64,000 nucleotides of DNA from an uncultured Pseudomonadota bacterium (GCA_963836235.1 CAWIIP010000002.1:1056001-1120000), one strand, 5' to 3'; counted from the stretch's first letter, positions 3,291-49,395 are shown. Numbers and translations: made by a program. The notes: a model not told the origin generated them from the letters alone.

Positions 3291-5843
3291 TCACCGAATG
3301 ACAAGCAATTTCGCGATGGAACGGTAACCGTCGACGATAACGACGATGTAATAGACACCATCCGCCAACGGCACCCCCCGTCTGTCGGTGAGCTCCACCT
3401 TTACCGCCATACCCGATGGCACGTTTTGGAAGGTCTCTTCTTGAACTTTCCGGAAGGCTAAGGTGTAAATCTCCACTTGGACATCCTCCAAACCTTGGTA
3501 AGCAGGCGGAAGCACATTGACCATCGGTCCAATAACCGGATTGGGGTAAATCAACAAAACTCGGTTTTCCGCAGGCGTGGGGGTGGCCGACAAGGTCTTT
3601 GTGGGTGTAGTCGAAATTGTTGGAGTATTCGTCTGAGTAAAGGTAAAGGTCGCGCTGTTGGTTCTGGTTGGCGAAACGGTGAGGGAAGCGGTTGGCGACG
3701 ATGAATTTGTCGAGGTAGAAGAAAAGGTGGGTGTGGGTGAAGCCGATGCCGTAACTGTAGGAGACGGGGTTCTCGTGGAGGACCACGTGGGTGTAGTCGA
3801 AGCGGTCGGGGTAGCGGTTGAAGTACCTGTCTTCGTGACTGAGGCCGTCGGGGTTTTAGACGGGGTAAAGCTCAAAGTTGGAGTGATCAAAGCCGTATTC
3901 GTGGGAGTTGAAGTAACTGTGAACGTTCCCGTAGACGTCGGCGTTGTTGAGTCGGTGGAAGTTTCCGAAGGGCTTTCGGTGGCCGTGGAGGTAGGAGTCG
4001 GGCTTAATGTGGCCGTCGCGCTTGAGGTATTGGATGCCGTTGAAGTCATGGAAGATGTGAAGGAAGGCGTTGGCGTAATCAGAAGTGTGTCCGTGGGAGT
4101 CAAGGTGACCGTCGCCGTATAAGTTGTTGTGGAACTGGCCGTTTTGGTCGGGCTAGCCGTAGGGCTATTGGTGGTAGTTGATGTCGCCGTCACGGTACTG
4201 CTGGGGCTGGCTGAGGGTGTGGCTGTCATTGAAGATGTTCCGGTAGAAGTCGGGGTATTTATTAAAGTGTTGGTCATGGTGGCAGTCGCACTCCATGTGG
4301 CAGTTGAACTGAACGTGGATGTAACCGTATTGATCCTCGTCGCGGTAAAGCTGGGCGTATTCAGTAAAGTGTTGGTGGAAGTAAGTGTTGCCGAATTCGT
4401 CGGGGTATTGGTCATCGTCTCTGTGGCACTATGGGTTGCAGTAGCGGTAGCCGTATGAACCTGGGTATTGGTCCAGCTAGCCGTTGGGGTTGAACTAGGG
4501 GTGGCGGAAGCCGTTGAAGTAGAAGTGCTCAAAGGCGTATTGGTTCTTGTAAGTGTAGGCGTTCCCGTGGTCGTAAAAGTCGCCGTAGTTGTTGGGCTTT
4601 GGGTCTGCGTCAGCGTCGCGGTGGCAGTGACGGTTTTGGTTGGCGTGGAAGTAGCGGTATTCATCGGTGTATTAGTACGTGTCGCGGTTGGGCTGTTGGT
4701 GGAGGTGGGGGTTGGGGTTCCAACCGAGGTACATGTGGTAACCACCGCATTATCCCGGGTAAAAAGATAGTCTCGGACCTCGCCCGCTGGAGCGAACCAC
4801 ATGCTGTTGTTCCCCGAAACCGCGAAATTCGTGTTCAAGTAGTTCAGCAGATCCTGAAGGGTTGTTTGGTTGGTGCTGTAGGCGTCGGCGGCCGCTCCGC
4901 TGCCCTGTGAAACGCTGTGGGTATACTCGATAAGCCAGGTGGAACGGCTTTGACCCGCCGCAGAGGCGGCTAGCGACTTCCAGGCTGTATCATCCGTTCC
5001 GAACATCCCGCCCCGCTGGAGCTGGAAGGGCAAAGGGGGCGTATCCACGTAATTATAGGATCCTCCCCCGCACTCCGCGGAGAGGAGATAGGAAGGTGGA
5101 TATCCGGAACAAGTGTTCGCCGAGGAATTCTCGTAAGGAAAAACCATTTGAGTGACGTTATATCCAGGAAAGTATTTCAGCAAAAGGGGCTCGTTATTGG
5201 CCAACTCTGGATCGATATCCGTGGCGGTACCATTGCAGGTGAGTGGGTTGGGGTGGTCGTAGGAATGGTCGAACATGTCCCAGCCCGCCGCCCTCAAGTT
5301 TTGCAAGCAAGTCCAGTTCATAAAATAACTACCGCTCCCGGATGCCCCTCCCCCATTGGCCCAGGAGCCTACAACCGCTTCCCCTGCCCTCCAGCCCAAC
5401 GCGTCCAAAAGAGGTTTACCATAGTCATATTGGGTCAACCGATTGTCGTCAAAGGTAAGGGAATAGGCCCAATGGAAGTTGTTGTAGAGGGTGGCTTTGG
5501 TAGCGGCACCTGTGCCGCCGGAGGTCCAGTTCACGGCGGTGACAACGATGGATTTTCCCGTCGTGGTGAAGGTGGCTGTTCCGGCTGAGGAACTATAGGT
5601 GGCCGAAACCGCGGCCCCATCGGCCGTGACGGCTACCGAAGCGCAGGTGCCCACGTTGACAATCAACGTGATTTTCTCGTAGTTGCACTGGGTAGGAACG
5701 GCTGAATAATTAACCTGCACACAATAAGTTTGGTTGGCCGCCAACCCCTTAGAAGCGCTTACAAAGCACAATAAAAAAAAGCTGACTTGCAAGGCATTAA
5801 AAAAGAAGGGAAGTTTTAAGAAAGTTTTATTGAATTTGTTCAT
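3291..5843 (-). CDS. Secreted polysaccharide deacetylase (CE4/NodB-like) + Thr/Ser/Pro stalk + T9SS-like CTD
   Basis: SLTFDD and DHSYDHP metal-binding motifs. Start placed at ATG 5843 (MNKFNK, GAGGG RBS, signal peptide follows). CTD IYPNP...YTLAFRKV...LADGVYY...KLLVIR. Confidence 0.8.
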   Translation of the reverse strand: MNKFNKTFLKLPFFFNALQVSFFLLCFVSASKGLAANQTYCVQVNYSAVPTQCNYEKITLIVNVGTCASVAVTADGAAVSATYSSSAGTATFTTTGKSIVVTAVNWTSGGTGAATKATLYNNFHWAYSLTFDDNRLTQYDYGKPLLDALGWRAGEAVVGSWANGGGASGSGSYFMNWTCLQNLRAAGWDMFDHSYDHPNPLTCNGTATDIDPELANNEPLLLKYFPGYNVTQMVFPYENSSANTCSGYPPSYLLSAECGGGSYNYVDTPPLPFQLQRGGMFGTDDTAWKSLAASAAGQSRSTWLIEYTHSVSQGSGAAADAYSTNQTTLQDLLNYLNTNFAVSGNNSMWFAPAGEVRDYLFTRDNAVVTTCTSVGTPTPTSTNSPTATRTNTPMNTATSTPTKTVTATATLTQTQSPTTTATFTTTGTPTLTRTNTPLSTSTSTASATPSSTPTASWTNTQVHTATATATHSATETMTNTPTNSATLTSTNTLLNTPSFTATRINTVTSTFSSTATWSATATMTNTLINTPTSTGTSSMTATPSASPSSTVTATSTTTNSPTASPTKTASSTTTYTATVTLTPTDTLLITPTPSFTSSMTSTASNTSSATATLSPTPTSTATESPSETSTDSTTPTSTGTFTVTSTPTNTALITPTLSFTPSKTPTASVTKTGTSTATPTASTTPTWSSTRTPSPTVTASASPTPTFSSTSTNSSSPTASLTVSPTRTNSATFTFTQTNTPTISTTPTKTLSATPTPAENRVLLIYPNPVIGPMVNVLPPAYQGLEDVQVEIYTLAFRKVQEETFQNVPSGMAVKVELTDRRGVPLADGVYYIVVIVDGYRSIAKLLVIR

Positions 5844-5958
5844 GATCCCTCTTCCAGAATCCCTTTCAAAGTTCATTGTGAATTGTTTTAAAAATTTCAC
5901 CAAAGCTGGTATTGAAGGTCGGTGCTTCAGGAAACCCACAGCCGGATGATTCCCTGGA

Positions 5959-8900
5959 TTAACGAATGACCAGCAATTTACCAGTAGAGCGGTGCCCGTC
6001 AACGGTGACAACAATGTAATAGACCCCGTCCGCCAAGGGCGCCCCACGTCGGTCAGTCAGCTCCACCGTTACGGGTTTACCCGACGGCACGTTCCAGAAA
6101 GTCTCATCCTGCACTTTCCGGAAAGCGATGGTGAAAATCTCCACACGTACATCTCCCAAACCTTGGTAAGCGGGCGGTAACACACTCACCGTCGGGCCTG
6201 TAACCGGGTTGGGGTACACCACCACGCCGGAGCTACCCGTCGGACTAGTCGTAGGAGTTTCGGTTGATGTGAAAACAACGGTGGAAGTGGCGGTAACTGT
6301 ATTCGTAGGCGTGTTGGAAGGCGTTGACGTCACCGTTACGATGGTAATCACCGCCCCGGTCACGGGTAAACCGCTAAAGAGCACCGCTTGCCCATTCGTT
6401 CCGGCCCCGTTTGTCACACTGAACTGGTAGTTCCCTGTCGGCGCGCTATTTGAAAAGTTCACCACCACTTGGTAAGTCACCGCACCGTTACTCGGCTGAA
6501 TGGTCCCGTTAAAATTAAAGGTTGCCGTCGTTCCTCCTGTGAAACTCGCGGTAGAGATAACCGTTCCATTGTCCACCAGTGATACGGAAGTGATCCCTGT
6601 GGGAGAAGCCCCCGACTCGGTAAGGGTCAAACTGCTCAAAGTAACCGGATTGTTACTAGGATTGACCAGTTGAATTTGCTGAACTGATACGTTGGAGGTT
6701 CCCGGTATCTGTGAAGAATTGGAGGGTGGGCTTGACCCTTGCGAGGCTTGTACCGTCACTACCGTGGGAGTGGGAGTCAATGTGATCGTGGAAGTGACGG
6801 TATAAGTTGCCGTATTGATCAGGGTATTGGTGGGAGTAGATGTAACCGTTGGAGTCGTAGTTTTAGTTGGGCTATTAGTGAGTGTGGATGTGGCGGTGGC
6901 GCTATTCGTCGGCGTACTCGTCATCGTGGGTGTGATAACCAAGGTATTGGTCGTCGTCGCCGAAGGCGTGCCGGTAGCCGTGCGAGTAGTTGTGAAGGTT
7001 GGCGTCGTTGATGAAGTCGAAGTGGCGGTTGAAGTAGGGCTGTTAGTGGGTGTGGCCGTCAGTGTGTTCATGGCCGTATTGGTCGCCGTAGAAGTAGTGG
7101 TACTGGTGGGGCTGGAAGTCGTCGTATTCGTCACTGTATTCGTTCGGGTGACTGTTGCGGTGTTGGATGGGGTTGAGGTGGCGCTATTTGTCAGCGTATC
7201 CGTCACCGTGGGCGTGATGACCGAGGTATTCGTCGTCGTCGCTGAAGGCGTGCCAGTAGCCGTGCGGGTAGTTGTCGATGTTGTAGTCCCGGATGCGGTT
7301 GAAGTGGTCGTTGCCGTGGGACTATTGGTGGGGGTGGCTGTCAGGGTGTTCATGGCCGTATTGGTCGCCGTAGAAGTAGTGGTACTGGTGGGGCTGGAAG
7401 TCGTCGTGTTCGTCACTGTATTCGTTCTGCTCGCTGTGGAGCTGGAAGTCGGGGTTGAACTGGGAGTTGGCGTCGCCGTATTGGCAACGGTGCTAGTCAT
7501 TGTCGACGAAGCCGTTTTCGTGGCAGTCGCAGTGGGGCTAGAGGTAGTTGTACTAGTGGGACTGGAAGTTTGGGTACTCGTCGGTGAATTAGTCCTGGTG
7601 GCCGTGGGGGTAAATGTGGCCGTATTGGCAACCGTATTTGTGGGAGTAGATGAAGCAGTCCGGCTGGCCGTGGAGGTGGCCGTATTCGTGGGACTATTGG
7701 TGCGGGTCGCGGTAGGAGTCGAAGTCGGGGTATTTGCAGGAGTGTTCGTTCGTGTAGCGGTCGGAGTGAAGGTATTGGTGGAGCTCGAAGAGCTGTTAAC
7801 TCCCACGAAACTCGTCACGCTGGGACCCGTCAGATTGTATGTGAAACTATTTCCCGATACGGCCACGGCGGCTTCCTGGACCAAATTGTTGTTATTGTCG
7901 GTCACCCAAGGAACCACGGAAGTGACGTTGACTCCGTTGAAGGTGAAGGTCTGGCTGGTGGTGCTGCTATTGCCGTTGATAGCGACGATGACGACGGTAG
8001 CCGGAGCGGAAGTGTTGGTGTTTTTATAAGCGGTCACCGAAACTCCACCAGTAGGTACGGTCGTCGCGCCCATGCGGTAAAAGCTCGGGCGCACGAACTT
8101 ACTATATTGGCCCAAGACCATGAGTTTCTTGGAGATACCGCTGGAGGTAATCAGGGCAGAGTTATCGGTGCCCCAAATCCACCAGTGGTGGAAGGCATCC
8201 ATCAAGCCGGTGGTCATGGAGTTGTGGACCCAGCCGGCTTCCACAAGTCCAGAGGTCATGGAATTATCGGGCCCCGCGCCGGAAACGTCGGACATTTCCG
8301 TTTCCCAGTTGTCCTGGTTTGTCAGGTGGCTGAAACCGCCCGAGGAAAGGGAGTTGGGTCCTCCTCCGTATAAATGTCCGGCGATGATATTAACGAAAGG
8401 CGCGTTGGTGGCGTCGTTCATGGTGGTGGCCGCCAGGGGCAAACGGTCGCCGAAGCTCTCCGTAATCATGATCTTGGTCGAAAGTCCCGCGGTCTGCAGG
8501 GCCGAGTGGAATGCTCCGGTGAAAACGTCGAACTGCCCAGCGTTCCAAATCGCGGCTTCGTAAGTGGGATCCCAGTCGGGTTCGTTTTGACAGGAAACGG
8601 CGTAGAGGGTGACGCCAAAACTATTTTGGATGTACTGGATGTAGCGCACCAGGTAGCTGGCGTAACCGGTATCGGCACTGTTGGGGGAGCCTGAGGCCGC
8701 TCCCAAAAAAGTGGCGGTGCTGGTTAAATTGCCGTTGGAGCCGCCGCCGTCCACGCTGTTATTGCCCTTATAAGTGGCTGGGGGTGACCACTCAGTGGAC
8801 CAGATAGTGATGTTGGGGTTGACCGATTTGGCCAGAGTCATGGGGCCCGCTTCGGAGTTCCAGGCCGAGCCGCTGCCGGTATCCGTGGGATCGATGCGGG

Positions 8901-9150
8901 TGCGCATCAGGGAAAGTCCCGCATGGCCGTTGGTGTTATCTACCGCCCAGAGGGTCGAGGCATAGGGGGAAAGATTGCTAGCCGCGTTCCAGGCGCTGGC
9001 CGCCCCGAACCCGCGGATAATTTGGTTGGTCTGGGTCGCGTCCACGGTGCAAGTACCTGCCCAAACTCCGGTAGCGCTTACAAGCATGGTCAGGACCAGA
9101 AAGTTAAAAACGATTTTTTGAGCCACAATAATCCTCAGGTTTTTCGTCAA
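5959..9150 (-). CDS. GH30 (GH30_8-like) xylanase + stalk + Ig-like module + CTD
   Basis: QIIRGFGAA, GLSLMRTRI, EWSPPA, CQNEPDW, HLYGGGP, WETE, GQYSKFVRP. Signal peptide; TTG start. Confidence 0.88.
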   Translation of the reverse strand: MTKNLRIIVAQKIVFNFLVLTMLVSATGVWAGTCTVDATQTNQIIRGFGAASAWNAASNLSPYASTLWAVDNTNGHAGLSLMRTRIDPTDTGSGSAWNSEAGPMTLAKSVNPNITIWSTEWSPPATYKGNNSVDGGGSNGNLTSTATFLGAASGSPNSADTGYASYLVRYIQYIQNSFGVTLYAVSCQNEPDWDPTYEAAIWNAGQFDVFTGAFHSALQTAGLSTKIMITESFGDRLPLAATTMNDATNAPFVNIIAGHLYGGGPNSLSSGGFSHLTNQDNWETEMSDVSGAGPDNSMTSGLVEAGWVHNSMTTGLMDAFHHWWIWGTDNSALITSSGISKKLMVLGQYSKFVRPSFYRMGATTVPTGGVSVTAYKNTNTSAPATVVIVAINGNSSTTSQTFTFNGVNVTSVVPWVTDNNNNLVQEAAVAVSGNSFTYNLTGPSVTSFVGVNSSSSSTNTFTPTATRTNTPANTPTSTPTATRTNSPTNTATSTASRTASSTPTNTVANTATFTPTATRTNSPTSTQTSSPTSTTTSSPTATATKTASSTMTSTVANTATPTPSSTPTSSSTASRTNTVTNTTTSSPTSTTTSTATNTAMNTLTATPTNSPTATTTSTASGTTTSTTTRTATGTPSATTTNTSVITPTVTDTLTNSATSTPSNTATVTRTNTVTNTTTSSPTSTTTSTATNTAMNTLTATPTNSPTSTATSTSSTTPTFTTTRTATGTPSATTTNTLVITPTMTSTPTNSATATSTLTNSPTKTTTPTVTSTPTNTLINTATYTVTSTITLTPTPTVVTVQASQGSSPPSNSSQIPGTSNVSVQQIQLVNPSNNPVTLSSLTLTESGASPTGITSVSLVDNGTVISTASFTGGTTATFNFNGTIQPSNGAVTYQVVVNFSNSAPTGNYQFSVTNGAGTNGQAVLFSGLPVTGAVITIVTVTSTPSNTPTNTVTATSTVVFTSTETPTTSPTGSSGVVVYPNPVTGPTVSVLPPAYQGLGDVRVEIFTIAFRKVQDETFWNVPSGKPVTVELTDRRGAPLADGVYYIVVTVDGHRSTGKLLVIR
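5989..7427. repeat. ~1.44 kb near-identical copy of 11326..12764 (distal stalk + Ig-like module + CTD)
   Basis: Offset 5337. Identical shadow ORFs in the track (6209/11546, 6739/12076). One mismatch seen near 7408. Confidence 0.92.
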
Positions 9151-9373
9151 GAAAACTTTTAATTAAATGAATTCAGGTCTGTAGAATAATACTTCGGAAA
9201 TGACCGAGGTTTTCAAAAGGCCGTTCGAGAACATCGCTTAAACGTCACATCAATTACCTTTTATTTCACCCGGGTTAAAATTCAGCCCGCCGAAGAAAAT
9301 TGCTCGTTCAACCCAAACCGTTCTTTCAAGGCGAATTTGCCCCGAAAGGAATAAATTTTTCTAACTCCGACGC

Positions 9374-9387
9374 TGTAACCGGTTACA
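9374..9387. promoter_or_regulatory. Perfect palindrome TGTAACCGGTTACA, LacI-type operator candidate
   Basis: Intergenic between AraC and GH30; recurrent motif. Confidence 0.65.
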
Positions 9388-9431
9388 TTTTATTGGCTTG
9401 AACGGACGGAAACGGTGCCTGAACGACCGTT

Positions 9432-11240
9432 TTAAACTTGCTGAAGGTTTTTTCGGAAGGCTTGTGGAGTCTGTCCGATTTTTTTTCGGAACAGTTGAAT
9501 GAAGTGTGGATTTGATTTAAACCCGCAGTCCCTCGCGACTCGGAAGATCGGAAGCCGGGTGGCTTTCAGCAGACGTTTGGCCTCGTCCAGGCGGCGCCTC
9601 TGAAGATAGGCTTCCAGTCCCAACCCGGTGAGTTTCTTGAAACGCCGACTAAAGGTGGAAATCGAAAAACCCGCCCGCTTGGCCAGATCGGCAATAGGCA
9701 AAGGTTTCGTGAAGTGACGGTCTAAGTACTCGCGCACCTTCTCCACTGAATGGTCCTGTTGAGCCGAGAAAGGCTTCTCAATCTCTCTTTCCAATTTAGA
9801 AAGGGCCGTCTGGTAGGCCAGGACGATTTCTTGGAAAGTGACAGCCTCTTCCAATACACAGGCCGCGTCCTCCCTTAGCTTGCGCCTCTGGCGGGGGTGA
9901 AGGTCCATTCGTATCCCGACCGTTTCGGAAAGCCTATTCAGGGCGTAATGAAAATGCCACCGGATCTCGTGGGGATTCTGGAACGATACTTGTATGGCCT
10001 GCTTGAGGAAGAGGTCCTTGAGCACTTCCAGCCCGGAGAAGGACGCCGTCTGGAAGGCTTCATTCATATTGTCCAATAGGGTTCCTAGTTCCCTCACTCC
10101 GCCAAAAGCCAGTCCTTTTTTCCCGCCATCGAAAAACAATATTTCTTTAGCCGCGCCTTTCCACAAATGCAAGGCTAGGACGGCTTGTCGGTAGGACGGA
10201 TTCAAGGGTTCCCCAGGCGTCACTGTCTCTCCTACTCCTACCAATACCGGACCGCCCAATTCTTTGACGGCAAAGTCTCTTATTCTCCGGGCCGTCTCTT
10301 CGATGTTTTTTCTTTGAACCAATTTAGGCATCTTGGGATCGGCCGAAGTCACAAAAACCGCCCCATAGTCGTCCAATTTTCCGCCCACCGTTTCCGGAAG
10401 GGTTTGGGCGAAAAGAAAGGCCCCTCTCTGGAACCTGTAGATGCGTAATACTTCCGCCGTCCAATCCAGTGCCGTTAGTCCTGATCTTTGGGGGATGACC
10501 GTCAACACCGTCGTGGGTGTGCGGGTCACGCCAATTTCATCCTTCACCCACGCCCATTCCTCAATTTTTTTCGACCAAGGCGGAACCGATTCGGAGGTGG
10601 GCTTTCCCAGGGCCCAATCCATGAAATAACTATGGGGTAGGTTCTTCGAGAAAACACCCACCAACAGGGCTTGGAACCTCGGGCCGATGGCTTCTCCGTC
10701 CCCGGAGCCGGAAAGAAGATTAGCGAAAAGTTCCAGCGATTCCTCGAAGGCCGGTAAGAGCGGGCCATCCAGAACGGGGATTTCCAAAAGCGACCGGGTG
10801 AACTCTCGGAACTCGGGAAGGTCGGGCGAGACGGCACGCCCGCTCAGTTGTTTCCAGCAATGGGAAAGGGTCTCGAAAGTGATTTCCTTTTTCGCGAAGG
10901 CTCCCGCTTGCAGGCATCCCAGGATTTTTTCGCCGGTCAGGATTGGCACGAATAAATCTTTGAACCCCAGGTGTTCCACGCCGACCGTCTTGCGGGTTTC
11001 CTGAACCTTCTTGAAGCACTGGCCGACGAAATGGTCCCGGGCCTGAGGCCCTCCATATTTGACTTCCAGGGCGTAAAGACTGGTCGTCCTTTTGCGGCGG
11101 TTCAAGGCCCACCAAACCTTGGGGGAAGTAATCTGGGGCCCGGAAACCAGGAAACAGCTTAAATCCACATAATAGTGAATGACGCTATGGAAGGGCTTGT
11201 ATTGAAGAAACTGGGAAAAAGCGGAGAACTTACTCTTCAT
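9432..11240 (-). CDS. AraC-family transcriptional regulator (paralog of 1369..3165)
   Basis: FSRRFKKLTG...RLDEAKRLL...VARDCGFKSNPHFIQLFRKKIGQTPQAFR. Shares EIGVTRTPTTV and VGGKLDDYGAVFV blocks with the paralog. Confidence 0.88.
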   Translation of the reverse strand: MKSKFSAFSQFLQYKPFHSVIHYYVDLSCFLVSGPQITSPKVWWALNRRKRTTSLYALEVKYGGPQARDHFVGQCFKKVQETRKTVGVEHLGFKDLFVPILTGEKILGCLQAGAFAKKEITFETLSHCWKQLSGRAVSPDLPEFREFTRSLLEIPVLDGPLLPAFEESLELFANLLSGSGDGEAIGPRFQALLVGVFSKNLPHSYFMDWALGKPTSESVPPWSKKIEEWAWVKDEIGVTRTPTTVLTVIPQRSGLTALDWTAEVLRIYRFQRGAFLFAQTLPETVGGKLDDYGAVFVTSADPKMPKLVQRKNIEETARRIRDFAVKELGGPVLVGVGETVTPGEPLNPSYRQAVLALHLWKGAAKEILFFDGGKKGLAFGGVRELGTLLDNMNEAFQTASFSGLEVLKDLFLKQAIQVSFQNPHEIRWHFHYALNRLSETVGIRMDLHPRQRRKLREDAACVLEEAVTFQEIVLAYQTALSKLEREIEKPFSAQQDHSVEKVREYLDRHFTKPLPIADLAKRAGFSISTFSRRFKKLTGLGLEAYLQRRRLDEAKRLLKATRLPIFRVARDCGFKSNPHFIQLFRKKIGQTPQAFRKNLQQV

Positions 11241-39776: not shown

Positions 39777-42700
39777 TTAACGCAGGAGGAGGAGTTTGAC
39801 TACGGAGTGGTAACCGTTATGGTTTGAGATCACCACATAGTAAAGGCCACTAGCCAGAGGTGCCCCTGACTTGTCGTTCAGGGCCAAAGGAATATGCCAG
39901 GTCTTCGCTGTTGTACTCCCGCTCACCGAAGCCGTCACGCCCGGTGACGAGGTCGACACCGTGTTGTCCTGCACATCCCGGAAGGCCACCGTGAATATCT
40001 GCACACTCAATGTATCCGACGCTTGACTCAATGTCGCCGACACCGTAACGGGTCCTCCCGTGGAGGGGTTCGGGTAAACCACTGGTATCGAACTCGGTTG
40101 AAGGGTGGAAGTCGGCGTCAACGAAGCCGTGGAATTGGGCGTCGAGGACGGTGTAGAGGTCGCCGAGCTAATCGTGACGACAGCCCCGGGGACCGGCAAT
40201 CCGCCGAAGCCAACAGCTTGGCCATTGTTCCCTGCTCCGCCTGTCACACTGAATGTGTAGGTACCCGTCGGCGCGCTAGTCGAGAAGGTCGCCACCACTT
40301 CATAAGTCACCGCCCCATTACTGGCCGGAATGACATTATTGGAAGTTAAACTACTCAAATTAAAGGTCGCCGTCGTTCCAGTGAAACTGGCCGTGGAAAT
40401 AACCGTTCCATTGTCCACCAGCGATACGGAAGTGATTCCCGTAGGGGATGCACCTGACTCGGTAAGGGTCAAACTGCTCAAAGTGACGGCATTTGCTCCG
40501 GGATTGGTCAATTGGACTTGTTGTACGGCCACGTTGGAAGCTCCCGCCGGTTGAGTTGAATCGACAGGCGGGCTGGACCCTTGCGAAGCCTGCACCGTTA
40601 CTTGGGTGGGAGTCGGGGTCGGGGTGATCGTAGGCGTATTGGTCAGCGTGACCGTTGCCGTAAAGGTTGGGCTGTTGGTTAAAGTTTCGGTGGCCGTATT
40701 GGCCAGAGTATTGGTAGGTGTGGAAGTCGTTGTTTTAGTTTCCGTATTCGAAGTCGTAAGCGTTGGGGTGTTGGTAGCGCTATTCGCCAAGGTATTAGTG
40801 GCTGTCGCCGTGGCCGTACTGGTGGCGCTATTCGCTAAAGTATTCGTGGGCGTGAAAGTCGTTGTTTTAGTTTCCGTATTCGAAGTCGTAAGCGTTGGGG
40901 TGTTGGTAGCGCTATTCGCCAAGGTATTAGTGGCTGTTGCCGTGGCGGTATTCGTGGCACTATTCGCCAAAGTATTCGTAGGCGTCGACGTGGCCGTATT
41001 TATGGCCGTATTTGTCGTCGTACTGGTAGTCGTCGAGGTCGGGGTTTTGGTCGCCGTCATTGTCGTCGTATTCGTAGGGGTATTGGTAGCGGTCACCGTT
41101 GTCGTATTCGTCACCGTATTAGTGCCGGTTTTCGTGGCCGTGAAGGTCGCCGTGCTTGTTCCCGTCATAGTAGGCGTCGATGAAGGTGTTGACGTCAAAA
41201 CGGTTCCCGTGGGACTGAGGGTCGGCGTATCACTAATAGTGGCCGTGGCGGTGTTAGTCGTCGTGGAGGTAGCGGTTTTAGTCGCCGTGTTTGTCGCCGT
41301 TTCCGTAATGGTGGAAGTAGTCGTACCGGTAGTTGTGGAAGTCACCGTTCGGGTGGCGGTGGAAGTGGCCGTATTGGTCGCCGTATTCGTCAGGCTATTC
41401 GTCGGGGTGGCCGTCGGGCTATTCGTGGGGGAAGGCGTCGCCGTACGGGTTGCCGTATTGGAAGTAGTGCCTGTCGCCGTACTCGTGGTCGTATTGGTCG
41501 CCGTGCTGGCCAAAGTGCTGGTGGAAGTCGAGGTCACCGTTGAAGTAACCGTCTTCGTAGGGCTATTTGTGGTTGTATTCGTCGGACTATTCGTAGTCGT
41601 ATAGGTCGCGGTTACCGTAGCGGTATTACCCACCGTATTCGTTGGGCTGGCGGTAACGGTAAAGGTCGGTGTTCGCGTTGGACTGTTGGTGGCGGTCGTA
41701 GTAGGTGTAAATGTAGCTGTGGAAGAAGGGCTACTTGTAGCTGTCTTTGTAAGGGTCCCGGTTGGGGTTAACGTGGGAGTATTAACCACGGTGTTGGTGG
41801 CGGTGGAGGAAGGTGTTCCTGTGGGCGTACGAGTGGCGCTGGAAGTAGGCGTACCGGTCGGGGTACCGGGTACCACCGAGGGTGTGGCGGTATTAATGAT
41901 GACGGGCGTGTAATAGCCGTTGGAAATTTTGGCAAAATGCATGCAAACCTGGTCCACCGAATACCCCAATGTCGCGGGATTACCCGCAGTATCCCATTGG
42001 ACGGAAGTCACATTGGTCAATGCCTGGTCACGCGTGAGGGAGACGCTTCCGTTCGAGGCCAACCCATAGCAGAATCCCGCGCTGTTCCAGTCCTGGCACA
42101 TGATCTCGTTGTAAGTGACGGTGACGGCCTGCCAGGTTGTGGTCACAGGGAAAGTATAGCCGAACTGGTTGGCGTTGCCGCCATTGGCGGGGTCAAGGGC
42201 GGGGTTGTAGAAATTTAAGCGGATGGTCATGGGCGCCGTCGATTTAATATAAAAGTTGATATCCACCAGTGAACAGGGGCCCGCCCCACCAACCGTCAGA
42301 TTCAAGAGATTGTTATATGGCGCATTCAGGGCGGTGGCGATGGCAAATCCTCCATATGTAGCGGGAGTGCTCAAGCCGTTGTCCATCCAGAAACCCGTCA
42401 CGGACGCATCCCAATTAGTTCCCGCGGCACCGGGAGATTGGAGAATATAGGAGGGACCGGAGACAATGGCACGGGTGGGCGTGGGATTGACCGGGGTGTT
42501 GTTCAAACTGGCATAGGAAAAAGTAAACCAGAAACCATTGGTTGAATTGATAAGGTTGTCGTCCTCTAAATCATCCAGCATGAAGCAAGGCATGGGCGTG
42601 GGGGTGGCGGGCGGGGTGTTGGCGGTACAACCGCCGCAGGCCATGTTGGGAAAGTTACCCGTTCCCACCATCAAACACATGAGGCCCAGTGTGTCCTGGA

Positions 42701-43901
42701 AGTATTCCAACGTCACGCAGCCGGTGTTGGCCATCAGACGGCGGGCAAGTTCGTCATAGGTGTCGTCCACGAAAGCCTGGTTAACAGGGTTATTAGGCAG
42801 CCCTGCCATACAGCCCACAAGCGCAGGACCGATCTGCAGGTGGGAGCAAGGGGAGGTAGCACCGTCCGTGCCAGCCTTGACGGCTGTATTGCCGTCCGTG
42901 GCGTTGAAATATTCCTGGATATAATTAAGGTAACCATTGGCGGTGACCCCGGCCTGCATGGTACGGGCGAACATGGAAATAGGGCCCTGGTTGCTGCCGT
43001 TCCAGAGGTAGTCCGTGCCCATGCGCCAGCCCCAGCGGGAAGCGTCGTAACCGTGGTTGTTGGCTCCTTCGGTGCCAAGAGCGATAGGGGAGTGGAAGGT
43101 GCCGTCGTTGTTGATTTCGTTGGGTACATAGCCATGGGTCCATTGGCTTTCCAAAGCCGGGCAGAGGGTGTTGTAAACCCATGTGACTACGTTGGTCCAT
43201 GCCGTATTGCCGGTCTTAGTCTCAAAGCAACGGTACCACCCGGGTGAGCAATAATCAGGATAAACGACCCCCGTATTGTTGTCGCCGCCCGTGACTACGT
43301 TGCCAGAGAAGTCTTTTGCTATAAGTGAAGCGGCCATACTGGCGGCTTCGGTGGTGTAAGTGGCATTGTTCCACTGGTTGGCCGCCATATAGAGCGACAT
43401 GCACATGTCTTGATCCGCATCCGTGGCGTTGTTCCCCGAACAGGTGGCGCCAGTCGGGCCAGCGCAGGTCCAGTTCATCAAGCCGTTGCCGTCCAGATGG
43501 GCCTTGCGATAACCATCCAAGCCATCGAAGAGGGTCTTATCCGCCATTTGGACGGCGATCAACATGCCGTAACCAATTCCTTCCGAAACCGTCTCATAAT
43601 TGGAACCGCCACCGCTTCCGGCATCGGGCCACCAAACCCTCGTGCTGGCTCCGGTCCCCGTGACGAAGGCGTTGTACCAAGAGACATAAAACTGGGAGAC
43701 GGCAGCGGCATATTGAGCTTGGCTGTAACGGCTGGGTTGCAAGCCATAGGTATAGCGGATGTTATGCGGGAAGGGGCAGGTGATAGTGCTAGCTGAAGGG
43801 TCATTGATGAGAGGCGCCGAATAAGCGACCGATATAGATACTAACATTAGGGAGGCTGTAGCAAAAAAACGGAAAAGGTTTTTAGTTAAAAAATTTTTCA
43901 A
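39777..43901 (-). CDS. GH8 glucanase + CBM11-like domain + stalk + Ig-like module + CTD
   Basis: TVSEGIGYGML, NATDADQD, YDASRWGWR. MLDDLEDDN...GFWFTF CBM-like domain. TTG start. Confidence 0.88.
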   Translation of the reverse strand: MKNFLTKNLFRFFATASLMLVSISVAYSAPLINDPSASTITCPFPHNIRYTYGLQPSRYSQAQYAAAVSQFYVSWYNAFVTGTGASTRVWWPDAGSGGGSNYETVSEGIGYGMLIAVQMADKTLFDGLDGYRKAHLDGNGLMNWTCAGPTGATCSGNNATDADQDMCMSLYMAANQWNNATYTTEAASMAASLIAKDFSGNVVTGGDNNTGVVYPDYCSPGWYRCFETKTGNTAWTNVVTWVYNTLCPALESQWTHGYVPNEINNDGTFHSPIALGTEGANNHGYDASRWGWRMGTDYLWNGSNQGPISMFARTMQAGVTANGYLNYIQEYFNATDGNTAVKAGTDGATSPCSHLQIGPALVGCMAGLPNNPVNQAFVDDTYDELARRLMANTGCVTLEYFQDTLGLMCLMVGTGNFPNMACGGCTANTPPATPTPMPCFMLDDLEDDNLINSTNGFWFTFSYASLNNTPVNPTPTRAIVSGPSYILQSPGAAGTNWDASVTGFWMDNGLSTPATYGGFAIATALNAPYNNLLNLTVGGAGPCSLVDINFYIKSTAPMTIRLNFYNPALDPANGGNANQFGYTFPVTTTWQAVTVTYNEIMCQDWNSAGFCYGLASNGSVSLTRDQALTNVTSVQWDTAGNPATLGYSVDQVCMHFAKISNGYYTPVIINTATPSVVPGTPTGTPTSSATRTPTGTPSSTATNTVVNTPTLTPTGTLTKTATSSPSSTATFTPTTTATNSPTRTPTFTVTASPTNTVGNTATVTATYTTTNSPTNTTTNSPTKTVTSTVTSTSTSTLASTATNTTTSTATGTTSNTATRTATPSPTNSPTATPTNSLTNTATNTATSTATRTVTSTTTGTTTSTITETATNTATKTATSTTTNTATATISDTPTLSPTGTVLTSTPSSTPTMTGTSTATFTATKTGTNTVTNTTTVTATNTPTNTTTMTATKTPTSTTTSTTTNTAINTATSTPTNTLANSATNTATATATNTLANSATNTPTLTTSNTETKTTTFTPTNTLANSATSTATATATNTLANSATNTPTLTTSNTETKTTTSTPTNTLANTATETLTNSPTFTATVTLTNTPTITPTPTPTQVTVQASQGSSPPVDSTQPAGASNVAVQQVQLTNPGANAVTLSSLTLTESGASPTGITSVSLVDNGTVISTASFTGTTATFNLSSLTSNNVIPASNGAVTYEVVATFSTSAPTGTYTFSVTGGAGNNGQAVGFGGLPVPGAVVTISSATSTPSSTPNSTASLTPTSTLQPSSIPVVYPNPSTGGPVTVSATLSQASDTLSVQIFTVAFRDVQDNTVSTSSPGVTASVSGSTTAKTWHIPLALNDKSGAPLASGLYYVVISNHNGYHSVVKLLLLR
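40726..40940. repeat. 132-bp-period (44-aa) tandem duplication in the GH8 stalk
   Basis: tgttttagtttccgtattcgaagtcgtaagcg... occurs at 40731 and 40863. Confidence 0.85.
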
Positions 43902-44193: not shown

Positions 44194-45861
44194 TCAATAG
44201 AAGCTGACGTCATCCACCCAAAGGTCATAGTTGGCAAGGGGGAAAGTGTTGTCAAACTCCCATTGGACGCCGAGGAGAGAAGTCGGATCCCAAGGAACCG
44301 TCATGTTTCCCCATCCTTGTGGCGCGACAATAGGTGTCGTCATCGGGATTTGGATCAGTTGCCATGAAGTCGTGATCTGTGTCGTCAATTCATAACAGTA
44401 ATGGTCGTCGCATTGAAGTGTTAGGCCCATGCTGTTCACGCTGGGGCCGACGCAACTGCCGCCTTCGGCCGCCGTGGCCGTTGCCACCTCCGGGAACTTG
44501 ACAAAGACACCCGCGACGTTGGAGGAAGGTCCCCACTTGGCGTAAAACTGAACGCCGTGGGAGAAATCGGTCGTGGCCCAAGCGCTAGCGTTATATGGCC
44601 CCTCGGGCTTCAAGAAATTAACCCCTAATCCGGCGAAGGGACAAGTGGTGTAGGGCGCGCCGCAAGCCGCACCTACGGTTCCAGAAATATGGGCCGCGAA
44701 ATCCTGGGTACCGTCGTACCCCGGCGAATCGGGGAAAAAGGCCGTGCCGCTGACCGCCCCGTTCGGGCATTCAACGGTTCCCACCGAAAAGTTATCCGCG
44801 AAAATATACCAGTACCCGGTTCGACCGCTGGGGGATCCGGCATAAAAAGGAGCGGTGTTGTAAAAGGCCACATGATTTTCCCCGTCCTGGAAGTCGCTCA
44901 GCAAAGTCGACCCGGGAGCCGTCGGTGCGGCTGGAGATGTGGTCGTGACGAGTTGGACGTCATCAACCAGGAAATCAATATTAAAATTGTTCGTACCCAG
45001 GTTTTGCGGAGCGAACTTGACGGATTGGATGGAAACCGGGTTGAGCGCTGTGGAACTTCCGTCCTCCAAAAGGTCCCAACCCGCCTGGTTGTAATAAACC
45101 GTGAACTGTTGCCACGCAGTGGTGAATGGGACGGCTACCTGGTGGTCGGTGACGGATCCATTATCGACAAAGTCCACCCAGAACGGCACGGCGGCGCCGC
45201 AGATGGTAGAGGGCATCGTTTTGACCTTTCCCCAAAAGCTGATTCCCGTGTAGTGATGGCCCACTGTGGCGTCATAAAAGGTTACTCCCGCATTCAAGGT
45301 TCCGGTGGGATTGGTAAAGGTAAATCCCAATTGGTCGAACCCGCTGGTACCGCTGGGATTAAAAGTCACGCTTTGTTCAATAGCGGTGGCATCGACGGTG
45401 CCGACCCCGGAGAGGATGGTGGTGACACCCACATCGTTAGTGGCAAACCAATAACCATCCCGCCAATGGCCATTCTCATCCTTGGTAACGTAAATTTGGC
45501 TCACACTATCCGAGCCGCTTCCGCCCGTCCCCTTGAAATCGTCGATCAAAGGGTAGTTCGGAGTGGGGGTACCGGTGGCGGTTGAGGTACTGGTTGGTAC
45601 CGGGGAAGTAGTGGGTGTTGAAGTAGCAGTGTTTGAAGGCGTGTTCGTGGCAGTAGGTGGCGTACCGGTGGAAGTCGGGGTATGTGAAACCGTGGCAGTG
45701 GGGCTGGAAGTCGCCGAAGAGGTGGGAGTCGAGTTGCTGCTCGAGATAGGGATACTCGGGCTTCCCGGAGCCGACAGTTCGCGGGAACAACCCACGAAAA
45801 ATCCTAAACCGACCAATCCGGTTAAAAAGGTTCCCCAAACGAAAAACCGCCATGATTTCAT
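44194..45861 (-). CDS. Lipoprotein: short Thr stalk + two CBM11/CIA30-like domains, apparently non-catalytic
   Basis: Lipobox FFVGC. Domains PLIDDF...GYWFATND...YTGISFWGK...FLVDDVQL and LLSDFQDG...GYWYIFAD...GVQFYAK...LWVDDVSFY. Confidence 0.72.
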   Translation of the reverse strand: MKSWRFFVWGTFLTGLVGLGFFVGCSRELSAPGSPSIPISSSNSTPTSSATSSPTATVSHTPTSTGTPPTATNTPSNTATSTPTTSPVPTSTSTATGTPTPNYPLIDDFKGTGGSGSDSVSQIYVTKDENGHWRDGYWFATNDVGVTTILSGVGTVDATAIEQSVTFNPSGTSGFDQLGFTFTNPTGTLNAGVTFYDATVGHHYTGISFWGKVKTMPSTICGAAVPFWVDFVDNGSVTDHQVAVPFTTAWQQFTVYYNQAGWDLLEDGSSTALNPVSIQSVKFAPQNLGTNNFNIDFLVDDVQLVTTTSPAAPTAPGSTLLSDFQDGENHVAFYNTAPFYAGSPSGRTGYWYIFADNFSVGTVECPNGAVSGTAFFPDSPGYDGTQDFAAHISGTVGAACGAPYTTCPFAGLGVNFLKPEGPYNASAWATTDFSHGVQFYAKWGPSSNVAGVFVKFPEVATATAAEGGSCVGPSVNSMGLTLQCDDHYCYELTTQITTSWQLIQIPMTTPIVAPQGWGNMTVPWDPTSLLGVQWEFDNTFPLANYDLWVDDVSFY

Positions 45862-46314: not shown

Positions 46315-49300
46315 TTAATGCAAAAGAAGCAGCTTCACCACGCTTCGCTGAGTTCCGACTTCGATGACAACGTAATAGAGGCCGCTGGCCAAGAAATGTT
46401 TCCAGTCATCCGTTAACTCGAACTTCAACGGGCCGTAAGACACGGACTGGTAGGTGGTTTCCTTCACCTTCCGGAAAGCCGTTGTGAAAAGCTGTATCTT
46501 GACGTCTTGATTTCCCACATAGGGGGGAGGCAGAACGCTCACCGGCCCCCCACTAGACGGGTTAGGAAAAAGGACTGGAGTATATCCCGGCAGGGGCGTC
46601 AAGATCGCTGTGGGCGTATAGGTTGAGGCGGGGCCCAATGTTGGGGTGGAACTGATTGTTGACGAAGGCGTCGCTGTAACCATCACCACCGTGATCGTAG
46701 CTCCGTTAAGTGTCGTTGGGTTAAACAGGACCGGCTGTCCATTGTTCCCCGTCTCGTTTGTGATACTGAATGAATAGTTTCCCACCGCCGTATTCGAGAA
46801 ATTTGCCTGTACCTGATAGGTCACCGCTCCATTGCTTGCGGGAATCGTATCGCTAAAGTTAAAGACGGCGTTGGATCCAGTGAAGCTAGCCGTTGATACC
46901 GACACGCCGTTTTTCAAGAGCGTAACCGAAGTAATCCCTGACGTCGTTGCTCCCGTTTCCGTCAAAGTTAGACTCGTCAGATTCACCGGGCTGATACCCG
47001 GATTTGTCATGACGATCTGTTCCAACGATACTCCCGAAGCTCCCGGCAATTGCGAGCTGTTGCCTGGGGGAGATGATCCTTGTGAAACTTCCACCGTCAC
47101 CGGCGTAGGCGACGGGGTCGGCGTATTCGTGGGAGTTCCCGTATTTACCAGGGTGTTGGTAACCGTAGAAGTAACCGTTCGAGTCGCGCTATTAGTCGCG
47201 GTAGAGGTGGGGGTCTCCGTTGCTGTATTCGCCAAAGTGTTGGTAAAAGTCGGCGTCGCCGTATTACTCGGCGTATAAGTCAAGCTATTGGTAACGGTTT
47301 CTGTTGCCGTCCAAGTCGGGCTGGCCGTGGAAGTCGAAGCGGCGGTGCGTGTGGCGCTTGCTGTCGCCGTATCCGTCGAAGTATTCGTGGTGGTAGCGGT
47401 TGGCGATCCCGTAGCCGTGTTGGTGCCGGTGTCCGTGGTGGTGGACGTGGCCGTGTTCGTTTCTGTCTTGGTCGTGGTAAAAGAAGGCGTTGGAGTCAAT
47501 GAAGGGCTCAAAGTTCCCGTAGGACTTAAAGTTGGTGTATCTGTAATTGTGAAGGTAGCCGTATTCGTCGCAGTCGGGGTCGCTGTATTCGTAGGCGTAT
47601 TGGTTGCCGTATTCGTGGTGGTCGACGTGGTTGTGCCGGTTGCCGTGGAAGTGGTCGTGCGGGTAGCCGTAGGAGTTGCCGTGTTGGTCAGCGTATTGGT
47701 AAGAGTGTTGGTAGGTGTAGTCGTCGGGCTATTGGTAGCTGTCGCTGTTGCCGTACGTGTGGTCGTGTTGGTGGGACTATTGGTCTCTGTGCTAGTTACC
47801 GTATTAGTCAAAGTATTGGCCAAGGTGTAGGTAGGGGTGGCCGTTTGGCTGTTAGTAACCGTAGCCGTTGCTGTTCGCGTCCCCGTATTAGTGGCCGTGT
47901 TTGTAGCCGTAAAGGTGGCGGTGGAAGTCGGTGTTAATGTTAAGGTTCGGGTAGCTGTGTTCGTGGATGTAAATGTGGAGGTTGAAGTTGGCGTGTTGGA
48001 AGCCGTGTTGGCCAAAGTCGTAGTCGGCGTCGCAGTCGGGGTTTTGGTGGCCGTAGAAGTCGGACTCCAAGTGGCCGTCGGGGTTGTTGTGTTTGTCCCG
48101 GTGCCGGTAGCACTATAAGTCGGCGTCACAGTAACCGTTCTAGTCGATGTGTTAGTGACAGTTACCGTGGGACTGTTGGTGCGGGTATTCGTTGGCGTAT
48201 TCGTGGCTGTTAGAGTCATTGTATGGGTAGGGGTCCCCGTGAAAGTAAAAGTAGGACTATTGGTCGGAACGGGTGAACCGGCAGAAGGACAGGTAGGCAC
48301 AGGTGTTGCCAGGAAAGTAGAAACAGCGGCACCCCAGGCGGTTGGAGCGAAGCTACCCGTATATAAATTAGGACAGGAACTGTTGGTCATGGACCATGCC
48401 GTGCCGCCCGCGATGCCCGATGTGCCGGTCAGCCAAGGAAAGATGTTGGCGTCAAAAGTAGTATTATCCGTATTGCAACTCGTGGAAGGACCATACTCCC
48501 CCACAAAAACCGGGTAACTCGACAAAAGACTGCTTGGCACCTCGGCGTTCCAACTTGTGGAGGACGTTCCATCGTTATTGCCATAAAGGTGCGCGGCGAA
48601 AGCCACGCCGTTTCCCGTGTTCGTTACCGAAGCGGCGGGAAGCCCGTTTAAATTGGCACACCAATGCAGGCCTCCCATCAAACAAACATTATTGGCTCCG
48701 GCGCCGCGCACTGCGTTCAGGAGAGCCTGCATTCCCGGGGTGGAAAAAGAAGCTCCTGTCAAAGTGCCGCCATTCAGCCAAATGTCATAACCATTCGTAT
48801 CAACGGTCGGCGAGGTGTCTTTTCCAGAATCATAAGGTTCATTATAAAGGTCAAAAAGAACCGCCGAATTGCCAGCGTAAACCCCAGCCACCGAACTCCA
48901 AAAGGTGACGGCGTTGGCGTCCGCCATCGGCTGTTGTTTGGTCGTGGCGGCGGTTCCCCATCCGGTTCCGCAGGGGGACGTAGCCGCAGAGGATTCCCCC
49001 GACCAATGAAGGTCAAGGAGGACATAAACGTTGTTGTTGGCGCACCAGGTTACGATACCGTTCACGATGCTGCGGTAGTTAGAACCATTCGTGTCTGTGT
49101 CGCCACAACCGAACCAATAGTCTTGGTTCATTGGCAACCGGATGAAGTTTGAATCCCATCCTGTCACCGCCTCTTGCGCTACGCTCAGAAGGGTTCCTGG
49201 CCAGCTTCCGTTAGTCCCCGTGGAGGAAAACTCCAGCCCGTCCACATCGACACCCTTCAGCAAGATAGAGCAACCGCTGCTCGTTTGAAGCTTGTTACCC

Positions 49301-49395
49301 GAAACCTGAAGCACCGGAGGAGCCGCATAAATAACCGTGGCTAAAGAGAAAAGAATAAAACTTATAGCTAATAGGTATGGTTTTAGATTTTGAAT
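46315..49395 (-). CDS. GH5 cellulase-like + stalk + Ig-like module + CTD; start is non-canonical or frameshifted
   Basis: NFIRLPMNQDYW, LLDLHW, LFDLYNEP, AAHLY, VFVGEYG. A signal peptide is in frame upstream of GTG 49314 back to ATT 49395. Confidence 0.85.
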   Translation of the reverse strand: MQNLKPYLLAISFILFSLATVIYAAPPVLQVSGNKLQTSSGCSILLKGVDVDGLEFSSTGTNGSWPGTLLSVAQEAVTGWDSNFIRLPMNQDYWFGCGDTDTNGSNYRSIVNGIVTWCANNNVYVLLDLHWSGESSAATSPCGTGWGTAATTKQQPMADANAVTFWSSVAGVYAGNSAVLFDLYNEPYDSGKDTSPTVDTNGYDIWLNGGTLTGASFSTPGMQALLNAVRGAGANNVCLMGGLHWCANLNGLPAASVTNTGNGVAFAAHLYGNNDGTSSTSWNAEVPSSLLSSYPVFVGEYGPSTSCNTDNTTFDANIFPWLTGTSGIAGGTAWSMTNSSCPNLYTGSFAPTAWGAAVSTFLATPVPTCPSAGSPVPTNSPTFTFTGTPTHTMTLTATNTPTNTRTNSPTVTVTNTSTRTVTVTPTYSATGTGTNTTTPTATWSPTSTATKTPTATPTTTLANTASNTPTSTSTFTSTNTATRTLTLTPTSTATFTATNTATNTGTRTATATVTNSQTATPTYTLANTLTNTVTSTETNSPTNTTTRTATATATNSPTTTPTNTLTNTLTNTATPTATRTTTSTATGTTTSTTTNTATNTPTNTATPTATNTATFTITDTPTLSPTGTLSPSLTPTPSFTTTKTETNTATSTTTDTGTNTATGSPTATTTNTSTDTATASATRTAASTSTASPTWTATETVTNSLTYTPSNTATPTFTNTLANTATETPTSTATNSATRTVTSTVTNTLVNTGTPTNTPTPSPTPVTVEVSQGSSPPGNSSQLPGASGVSLEQIVMTNPGISPVNLTSLTLTETGATTSGITSVTLLKNGVSVSTASFTGSNAVFNFSDTIPASNGAVTYQVQANFSNTAVGNYSFSITNETGNNGQPVLFNPTTLNGATITVVMVTATPSSTISSTPTLGPASTYTPTAILTPLPGYTPVLFPNPSSGGPVSVLPPPYVGNQDVKIQLFTTAFRKVKETTYQSVSYGPLKFELTDDWKHFLASGLYYVVIEVGTQRSVVKLLLLH

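Follow-up and report, generated by a model that had tools for sequence, protein, structure and literature searches.

Stalked plant-cell-wall enzymes with divergent type IX secretion tails in an uncultured FCPU426 bacterium and their probable display through SprA- and PorV-type proteins

Introduction

How might a bacterium carry a whole set of plant-cell-wall-degrading enzymes across its outer membrane and keep them at the cell? The question is raised by a 64,000-nucleotide stretch of DNA from an uncultured bacterium listed under Pseudomonadota (GCA_963836235.1 CAWIIP010000002.1:1056001-1120000; hereafter the window, G000:C2:1056001-1120000 in our numbering), part of a 3.97-Mb genome in five contigs that is estimated to be 99.4% complete. 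Between positions 3291 and 49395, where all long genes lie on the minus strand, ten genes each encode a signal peptide, a carbohydrate-active catalytic module, a stalk rich in Thr, Ser and Pro and a common tail of 95 residues. An earlier reading of the window (the original prediction) had described ten carbohydrate-active enzymes (CAZymes) of this build, tagged in the manner of type IX secretion system (T9SS) cargo, and we located all ten.

Type IX secretion is regarded as a system of the Bacteroidota (FCB group) that depends on a proton-driven motor. A systematic survey detected it in 60 of the 97 Bacteroidetes genomes covered and in no other group (PMC4793230). The host suggested for the window lies outside that phylum: the enzyme tails have relatives with up to 67% identity in metagenome-assembled genomes (MAGs) titled candidate division FCPU426, a candidate phylum in the NCBI listing, which fits the FCPU426/Goldbacteria-like origin that had been supposed. 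One study ties the FCPU426 16S cluster to Goldbacteria, with Firestonebacteria and Elusimicrobia as neighbours (PMC7031533). Here, we ask what the shared tail is, which export components accompany it and what might hold the enzymes at the cell surface.

Results

The shared tail resembles T9SS type A C-terminal domains in profile and predicted fold

The ten tails align over 95 residues, with N13, P14, G17, A72, G74 and Y76 invariant, and the alignment reproduces the consensus given in the original prediction, (Y/F)PNP..GP.V....FTxAFRKV....LTD..G.PLAxG(V/L)YY(V/I)V....KLL(V/I)LR. The tail of the GH8 enzyme carries a 13-residue insertion, and its central motif reads FTVAFRDV. Retained in the tail are PNP, GxYY and K, the motifs of type A C-terminal domains (CTDs) of T9SS substrates. 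When scanned alone, 43 of 43 tails (nine from the window and 34 from relatives) matched the Pfam family Por_Secre_tail (PF18962) at E <= 1, the best at 2e-7, and 28 of the 43 matched FlgD_ig. In scans of whole proteins, TIGR04183 aligned end to end (positions 1-71 of 72) with three of the ten enzymes, at 17.8-21.1 bits against a cut-off of 23.

An AlphaFold model of the tail, computed on the 43-row alignment, has a mean predicted local distance difference test score (pLDDT) of 92.4 and comprises seven strands. Its best Foldseek matches in the PDB include the CTD of PorU (6za2, E 1.3e-4, 23% identity) and PorZ (5m11); also found were a CTD substrate bound to a T9SS complex (8glk_D) and the CTDs of mirolase (8qb1, TMq 0.71, root-mean-square deviation [rmsd] 2.3), RgpB (7pq4) and NucA, while a CARDB domain (3idu) ranked third and fourth. 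Judged by profile matches and predicted fold, the tail is thus a divergent T9SS type A CTD, homologous to the known domains and not a new fold, and its likeness to T9SS tags, proposed at the outset, holds.

The tail recurs across the genome and the phylum

A hidden Markov model (HMM) of the tail matched 52 open reading frames (ORFs) genome-wide, and in 49 of these the match ends at most 15 residues from the stop codon; in all ten window enzymes the tail lies at the extreme C-terminus of a protein with a Sec leader. As 47-49 of the genome's proteins bear the tail and a further contig holds a second array, the idea of the ten enzymes as a self-contained system has to be given up. Iterating the HMM enlarged the set from 49 to 115 ORFs, with envelopes reaching into stalks and FlgD-Ig proteins being taken in; this larger set served exclusively as a broad collection of CTD-bearing genes.

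The second array, on contig C1, encodes a GH30 enzyme with CBM3 (a family of carbohydrate-binding modules, CBMs), a further GH30 enzyme, GH62 with CBM3, GH30 with malectin and CBM3, GH44 and a metalloprotease with Kelch repeats. In both arrays examined, the tailed cargo consists mostly of polysaccharide-degrading enzymes. At the head of the second array (G000:C1:186001-240000) stand genes for an anti-sigma-like protein with a FlgD-Ig domain, a protein with PA14, CBM9 and CTD segments, and a PorV-type barrel.

Beyond this genome, 60 of the 61 phylum genomes sampled have the tail. We also scanned one genome per species, 185,579 species in all, with the pattern [EQF][IVL][FY]T[LTI]AFR[KR]V, which was built on an eight-row tail alignment. 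It matched 106 stretches, of which 95 were confirmed and 74 loci kept; each of the 74 lies in a MAG titled FCPU426, 'uncultured bacterium', 'bacterium' or 'proteobacterium', and none in one titled Bacteroidota. By this pattern, the FTxAFRKV signature is lineage-specific, in line with the original prediction, which did not recognize it from Bacteroidota CTDs. The tail is also seen on 15 proteins in public collections; 11 of them carry CAZyme Pfam families, and none has a precomputed PF18962 match or is named as a T9SS protein.

A SprA-type translocon and numerous PorV-family barrels are encoded in the genome

One ORF of 2028 residues matches the SprA/Sov translocon model (TIGR04189) with 226.6 bits against a cut-off of 200, and SprA matches were obtained in 58 of the 61 phylum genomes. 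In the region of this gene (G000:C1:505869-519006), it is followed by a gene for a 1545-residue CTD-bearing protein with a CbhB-like segment and preceded by genes for a LytTR response regulator and a histidine kinase.

The PorV family model (NF033709) gave 25 match rows that merge into about 21 genes; 16 rows exceed the cut-off, two of these representing second pieces of the same genes. One such gene lies within the window array (33113-34444, minus strand) and encodes a PorV/PorQ-family outer-membrane barrel followed by a C-terminal TPR region, with 114.7 bits against the family cut-off of 90. It falls below the cut-off of the PorV equivalog model (40.6 vs 250). All 13 family genomes searched have a homologue of this PorV-TPR protein, with up to 83% identity, and in two other genera (genomes G027 and G015) such homologues lie within tail arrays.

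With the broad CTD set, 14 of the 21 PorV-type genes lie within 3 kb, mostly less than 300 bp, of a CTD-bearing gene; 1000 random trials averaged 4.9 and never exceeded 11. The neighbours are diverse, comprising an NHL propeller, a subtilase, a sedolisin, a PA14-CBM9 protein and a LamG protein. Thus, the barrels look paired with particular CTD proteins, in the manner of PorQ-PorZ and PorV-PorU; the enzymes of an array share one barrel. Two of the neighbours are peptidases, each encoded directly beside a PorV-type barrel: a CTD-bearing S8 subtilase (G000:C4:564017-566784) and a sedolisin-like peptidase (G000:C2:379793-382991), which could be candidate tail-processing proteases in place of PorU.

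PorV complexes with CTD substrates have been solved. Predicting a complex of the in-array barrel with the tail gave a score of 0.34, while the best control reached 0.00; at least 58% of contacts were shared between runs, and the partner had a pLDDT of at least 78. This prediction lends weak support to a barrel-tail contact and may only reflect likeness to the solved PorV-CTD complexes.

Long stalks adjoin the end that is expected to be held at the membrane

Stalks are present on all ten enzymes and, at 317-580 residues, run longer than the 230-500 residues originally stated. They contain 35-44% Thr, 10-20% Ser and 9-12% Pro, and 2.8-4.4% charged residues. Long ORFs on the plus strand across the stalks (e.g. 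6815-8029) were dismissed as artefacts of ACN-rich coding.

Neighbouring genes share parts of this region nearly letter for letter. The last 1451 nt (3') of the GH30 gene (5959-9150) are identical to the corresponding part of the GH39/51-like gene (11296-15057) at 1447 of 1451 positions, and a 1044-nt stretch of stalk agrees between the GH39/51-like and GH28 genes at 1042 of 1044. The near-identity across 5959-18277 would therefore reflect either recent gene conversion, with stalk-plus-tail cassettes moving between neighbours, or collapse of repeats in the assembly.

Three lipoproteins of the window have the stalk at the opposite end, directly after the lipobox Cys, and no tail. These are a GH53 galactanase (25097-27514, minus strand; Glyco_hydro_53 276.5 bits, residues 474-781), a 555-residue protein (44194-45861, minus strand) and a 503-residue protein (60557-62068, plus strand). 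For the latter two, comparisons with Pfam, the PDB and each other revealed no family and no significant mutual similarity; the 555-residue protein also lacks an NCBIfam match, and its sole PDB match falls in the stalk region. Tailed enzymes thus have their stalk next to the tail end, and lipoproteins next to the lipid. The stalk is always beside the end expected to be membrane-held, which is our main reason to think that the enzymes are displayed on the cell rather than released.

The composition of the stalks suggests that they are probably O-glycosylated, a notion to which three tandem membrane proteins of the window also point. Encoded at 54279-58738 on the plus strand, these paralogous multi-pass proteins of 507, 491 and 436 residues share the motif D-E-(L/I)-Q-T-Y, which follows their first helix. 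Neither Pfam nor the PDB offers a match, and the sole lead is a feature-based likeness to PMT/PMT_2 glycosyltransferases of the GT-C type, which makes them candidates for stalk O-glycosylation. The O-glycosylation motif of Bacteroidota is D(S/T)(A/I/L/V/M/T). Each stalk holds merely one or two copies of it, and the Bacteroidota system is therefore unlikely to decorate the stalks.

A CBM-like domain precedes the tail in six enzymes

In six of the ten enzymes, a domain of 143 residues (the pre-tail domain) lies between stalk and tail, while the other four are stalked but lack it. Genome-wide it occurs on 14 ORFs, all 14 of which are tailed. Pfam yielded nothing significant for it, with no Cohesin among the families listed. 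Its structural model (pLDDT 95.9) is closest to the carbohydrate-binding domain at the N-terminus of GH33 sialidases (Z 12.2, rmsd 3.0, 131 aligned residues), with cohesins next at Z about 9. Since CBM3 occupies the same position in enzymes of the second array, we read the pre-tail domain as a putative CBM-like beta-sandwich module. An identity as a cohesin was considered and dropped, as the sialidase domain matches better and no dockerin is encoded: Dockerin_1 had no match in the whole genome, and as a control it matched in two genomes. The window proteins scanned, a set that did not include three short-chain dehydrogenase-like ORFs (49746-50453 and 62156-63855), likewise gave no match to SusC/D, cohesin or dockerin families, in line with the original prediction.

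The array covers pectin-, xylan- and cellulose-directed enzyme families

Pfam and NCBIfam confirmed nine of the ten catalytic family assignments made earlier. The array opens with a CE4 esterase (3291-5843, tail 3294-3578; Polysacc_deac_1 28.1 bits, cut-off 23.1) and a GH30 xylanase-like enzyme (5959-9150, pre-tail domain 6331-6759, tail 5962-6246; GH30 24.9 bits, cut-off 23; XynC 160 bits). The assignment that did not stand is that of the third enzyme (11296-15057, with stalk, pre-tail domain and tail 11299-11583), formerly called GH51-like, which has no Pfam match and is most similar to GH39 beta-xylosidases among PDB entries (E 2e-5) and to ArfA in NCBIfam (E 0.002). We read it as a probable clan GH-A type enzyme, the clan in which we presume its likely families to be placed.

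Next are a GH28 polygalacturonase (15413-18277, tail 15416-15700; Glyco_hydro_28 177.6 bits), a PL1-like pectate lyase (18540-21746, tail 18543-18827; PelZ 66 bits, TIGR04183 21.1 bits, FlgD_ig 31.2 bits, and a Pfam Beta_helix match below its cut-off), a GH43 arabinanase with CBM6 (21747-24941, tail 21750-22034; GH43 141 bits, CBM6 30 bits, AbnA 261 bits) and a PL4 rhamnogalacturonan lyase (27537-31496, pre-tail domain 27897-28322, tail 27540-27824; fn3_3 62 bits, TIGR04183 20.9 bits). The remaining members are a GH9 cellulase with CelD_N (36051-39527, pre-tail domain 36483-36932, tail 36054-36338; GH9 104 bits, CelD_N 47 bits), a GH8 enzyme (39777-43901, pre-tail domain 40152-40601, tail 39780-40094; 85 bits) and a GH5 cellulase (46315-49395, pre-tail domain 46675-47100, tail 46318-46602; Cellulase 97.9 bits).

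A hydrophobic N-terminal leader can be read in each of the ten enzymes. In the CE4 esterase it requires a start at ATG 5843 and not at GTG 6047. The GH5 gene has no in-frame ATG, GTG or TTG ahead of the leader, and only ATT at 49395, the probable start, yields one. In the region of this start (49290-49480, minus strand), an ATG close by belongs to a different frame and meets a stop six codons later.

One more gene of this type, the eleventh, extends past the left end of the window. Its N-terminal part lies at 3-1079 on the minus strand (Glyco_hydro_30, 40.6 bits), and the full ORF (G000:C2:1053591-1057079) encodes a GH30 enzyme of 1162 residues with tail and pre-tail domain.

A sigma factor, a putative anti-sigma protein and the barrel are encoded in tandem

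In the order of transcription, the array contains genes for an extracytoplasmic function (ECF) sigma factor (35137-35742; Sigma70_r2 and r4, TIGR02937 92.8 bits), an anti-sigma-like membrane protein with a periplasmic FlgD-Ig domain (34496-35140; FlgD_ig 49.2 bits), the PorV-TPR barrel and a 458-residue LamG/DUF11 protein (31714-33090; DUF11 29.3 bits). A similar head module precedes the second array. The LamG/DUF11 protein ends in a different, more canonical type A tail (TIGR04183 22.9 bits), which matches the profile of the enzyme tails weakly, at 26% probability. The FlgD-Ig domain of the anti-sigma-like protein was considered as kin of the enzyme tail and found not to be close (0.3% probability against the profile).

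Two paralogous AraC-family regulators are encoded on the minus strand, one beside the array (1369-3165; AraC-type helix-turn-helix matches at residues 493-597) and one within it (9432-11240; NCBIfam). The AraC regulators and the ECF sigma/anti-sigma/PorV-TPR module probably control expression. This module, like the pre-tail domain, the N-terminally stalked lipoproteins and the PorV-type gene itself, had been overlooked before.

Just outside the array, the gene at 50931-54218 (minus strand) encodes a 1095-residue STAND-type NTPase (NB-ARC) with many TPR repeats, which may be a regulator. Farther along, a GH44 enzyme with a leader, lacking stalk and tail (58765-60336, plus strand, 185.7 bits), precedes the 503-residue stalked lipoprotein, and two overlapping ORFs at 62156-63855 (minus strand) look short-chain dehydrogenase-like by eye.

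Discussion

A probable route from Sec export to stalked display

Computation shows how the enzymes are built, that the tail has the homology and predicted fold of T9SS CTDs, that SprA and PorV homologues are present, and that tail and SprA recur across the phylum. On this basis, we suggest that the region is a plant-cell-wall degradation regulon of an uncultured FCPU426 soil bacterium, the products of which leave the cell by a T9SS-related route and stay attached to it through their tail end. We put the probability of this combined reading at roughly 0.6. Each tailed enzyme would consist of a Sec signal peptide, at least one catalytic module, a spacer of 320-580 residues rich in Thr and the divergent CTD, with a CBM-like sandwich inserted between the last two in six enzymes. 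After Sec export into the periplasm, recognition of the tail would take place at the SprA-type translocon in the outer membrane and involve PorV-family barrels; homology and co-conservation are what points to this step. Upon crossing of the outer membrane, the tail end would stay held, and the catalytic module would be displayed at the far end of a long, probably O-glycosylated stalk. The surface 'bristle' of enzymes imagined in the original prediction would correspond to this last stage.

A number of results weigh against such a route. Most tails lie below the curated cut-offs (23 bits for TIGR04183, 27 bits for PF18962): in the whole-protein scans, seven of the ten enzymes had no TIGR04183 match at E <= 0.1 and eight had no PF18962 match, the other two reaching 21.0 and 17.3 bits. 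Among the T9SS genes named in the original prediction, SprA was found, and PorK, the sortase domain of PorU and PorL/M/N were not detected. The models for GldK (TIGR03525), for GldL, GldN and PorP/SprF, and for the Peptidase_C25 domain of PorU (PF01364) matched neither this genome nor any control genome; GldM was matched neither here nor in any of 41 phylum genomes from 16 families, and again in no control genome. As no control genome matched, we speak of these parts as not detected, rather than absent. The case is different for the FGE-sulfatase fold of PorK (PF03781), which had no match in this genome while the control matched in three genomes. The PorU model NF033707 gave 17 matches, every one of them confined to its CTD segment (positions 962-1095). 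Because the canonical T9SS needs the undetected parts, the present system would have to operate in another way, unless the tails have a different function; with three secretins in the genome, a type II route is available. In addition, when only the strict tail set is counted, two of the 21 PorV-type genes have a tailed gene within 3 kb, the random mean being 2.3. Finally, secretion, retention and glycosylation are predictions from sequence, as any cleavage would be.

Some of these nulls would be expected if the host possessed an ordinary, complete T9SS, in which PorK/L/M/N, PorU and PorZ had diverged too far for models trained on Bacteroidota, the tails were cleaved and the enzymes were attached to a glycolipid as in Porphyromonas. 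SprA, barely above its cut-off, is indeed strongly diverged, and the searches for GldL, GldM, GldN, PorP and the C25 domain are among those that matched no control genome. On the other hand, the FGE-sulfatase model is broad over the PorK fold and found nothing here while its control matched, GldM was found in none of 41 genomes across 16 families, and none of the PorU matches extends beyond the CTD part, so that we consider a complete system unlikely. According to another proposal, the tail would be no secretion signal at all but would serve for binding or anchoring, as an Ig-like module of the FlgD-Ig/CARDB type at the C-terminus, with exit by the type II system or in vesicles. This view could draw on the FlgD_ig matches of 28 of the 43 tails, the CARDB domain at rank three in Foldseek and the three secretins; moreover, PorV-family barrels were also matched in the control genome of B. 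thetaiotaomicron, which we take to lack a T9SS. A mere binding module would not account well for a tail that sits at the extreme C-terminus in 49 of 52 matched ORFs, shows the motifs PNP, GxYY and K that mark type A CTDs, finds T9SS CTDs as its best structural matches and, like SprA, occurs in nearly all sampled genomes of the phylum; we regard it as quite improbable.

Whether the stalks form a surface brush at all may also be questioned. In free cellulases, catalytic modules and CBMs are commonly joined by linkers rich in Thr and Pro, and a CBM-like domain follows the stalk in six window enzymes, with CBM3 there in the second array; the stalks could accordingly be flexible, protease-resistant linkers of freely released enzymes, like those of actinobacterial and fungal cellulases. 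With 317-580 residues, they are far longer than is usual for such linkers, the lipoproteins carry them directly after the lipid anchor, and four enzymes are stalked without any pre-tail domain. We therefore hold free release to be very improbable, and retain display of the enzymes through the SprA-type route as the preferred explanation.

Relation to known systems

The closest published precedent comes from a rumen Bacteroidete with 42 CAZymes that bear T9SS tails and are not organized in polysaccharide utilization loci (PULs). 'Candidatus Paraporphyromonas polyenzymogenes' and Cytophaga hutchinsonii resemble the present host in having many cellulases, hemicellulases and related enzymes with a type A sorting domain, encoded in operon-like clusters without SusC/D or cohesin-dockerin (PMC5831590). 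The enzymes described here differ from these in their FCPU426 host, tails under the TIGR04183 cut-off, the FTxAFRKV signature, stalks of 317-580 residues, and motor, ring and sortase components that were not detected. One case that the original prediction named as contradicting it, a Bacteroidota genome with ordinary TIGR04183 tails, a standard T9SS and neighbouring SusC/D, does not apply. T9SS-tagged, PUL-less enzyme arrays being already known from Bacteroidetes, the strategy cannot be called undescribed as a whole; what is new is that every enzyme has a very long stalk, that the tail is specific to the lineage, that the host lies outside Bacteroidota and that the machinery appears to be reduced.

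With the outer-membrane core of the Bacteroidota T9SS, the genome shares a SprA homologue above the cut-off, PorV/PorQ barrels and CTD proteins encoded beside barrels. Bacteroidota have a handful of PorV-type barrels, whereas about 21 paralogues are found here, the in-array barrel has an additional TPR tail, and PorU, PorK/N and PorL/M were not detected. The regulatory module recalls PorA-PorV-PorXY-SigP signalling in Porphyromonas gingivalis, where an ECF sigma factor likewise has genetic ties with a PorV-type barrel and with proteins that carry CTD-like domains (PMC7712824). Here, in contrast, a membrane anti-sigma protein with a FlgD-Ig domain takes the place of a two-component system, and it is gene order that suggests the link. 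The array also resembles a cellulosome in that many wall enzymes have one C-terminal module in common and the pre-tail domain is a cohesin-like sandwich (Z about 9), but the genome encodes no dockerin and the domain is closer to the carbohydrate-binding domain of GH33 sialidases.

Cellulolytic Goldbacteria/FCPU426 genomes of the same or a close lineage show similar enrichment in GH5, GH8, GH9, GH44 and CBMs, and the main text of that study does not contain the terms 'T9SS', 'linker' or 'C-terminal' (PMC7031533). Enzyme counts for Goldbacteria/FCPU426 genomes are likewise given in PMC5520028, in which the term 'secretion' does not occur, and in PMC9765126. A survey of the literature on FCPU426, Goldbacteria and T9SS in candidate phyla, with supplements outside its scope, turned up no description of the stalk-tail architecture.

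Implications

A more far-reaching version of this scheme may be tentatively considered, although we think it less likely to be right than wrong. FCPU426 bacteria may use only the outer-membrane core of the T9SS, that is, a SprA-type pore and an expanded set of PorV barrels, without PorLM motor, PorKN ring and PorU sortase. Uncleaved tails might then dock a brush of glycosylated stalks, tipped with pectinases, xylanases and cellulases, whose cassettes are swapped by recombination. From the usual length per residue, the stalks of such a brush would measure roughly 80-145 nm if extended. If true, the motor-less brush would constitute a third architecture for attack on plant cell walls beside PULs and cellulosomes.

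Outside Bacteroidota, the phylum joins a conserved SprA-type pore with many PorV-type barrels and dozens of tailed cargo proteins. If the absence of motor, ring and sortase holds, it would bear on the questions of which T9SS parts are ancestral and which are needed for transport. Tail and stalk together could act as a display cassette for enzymes, and the scheme offers a testable picture of how a rare soil lineage with cellulase-rich genomes may present its enzymes.

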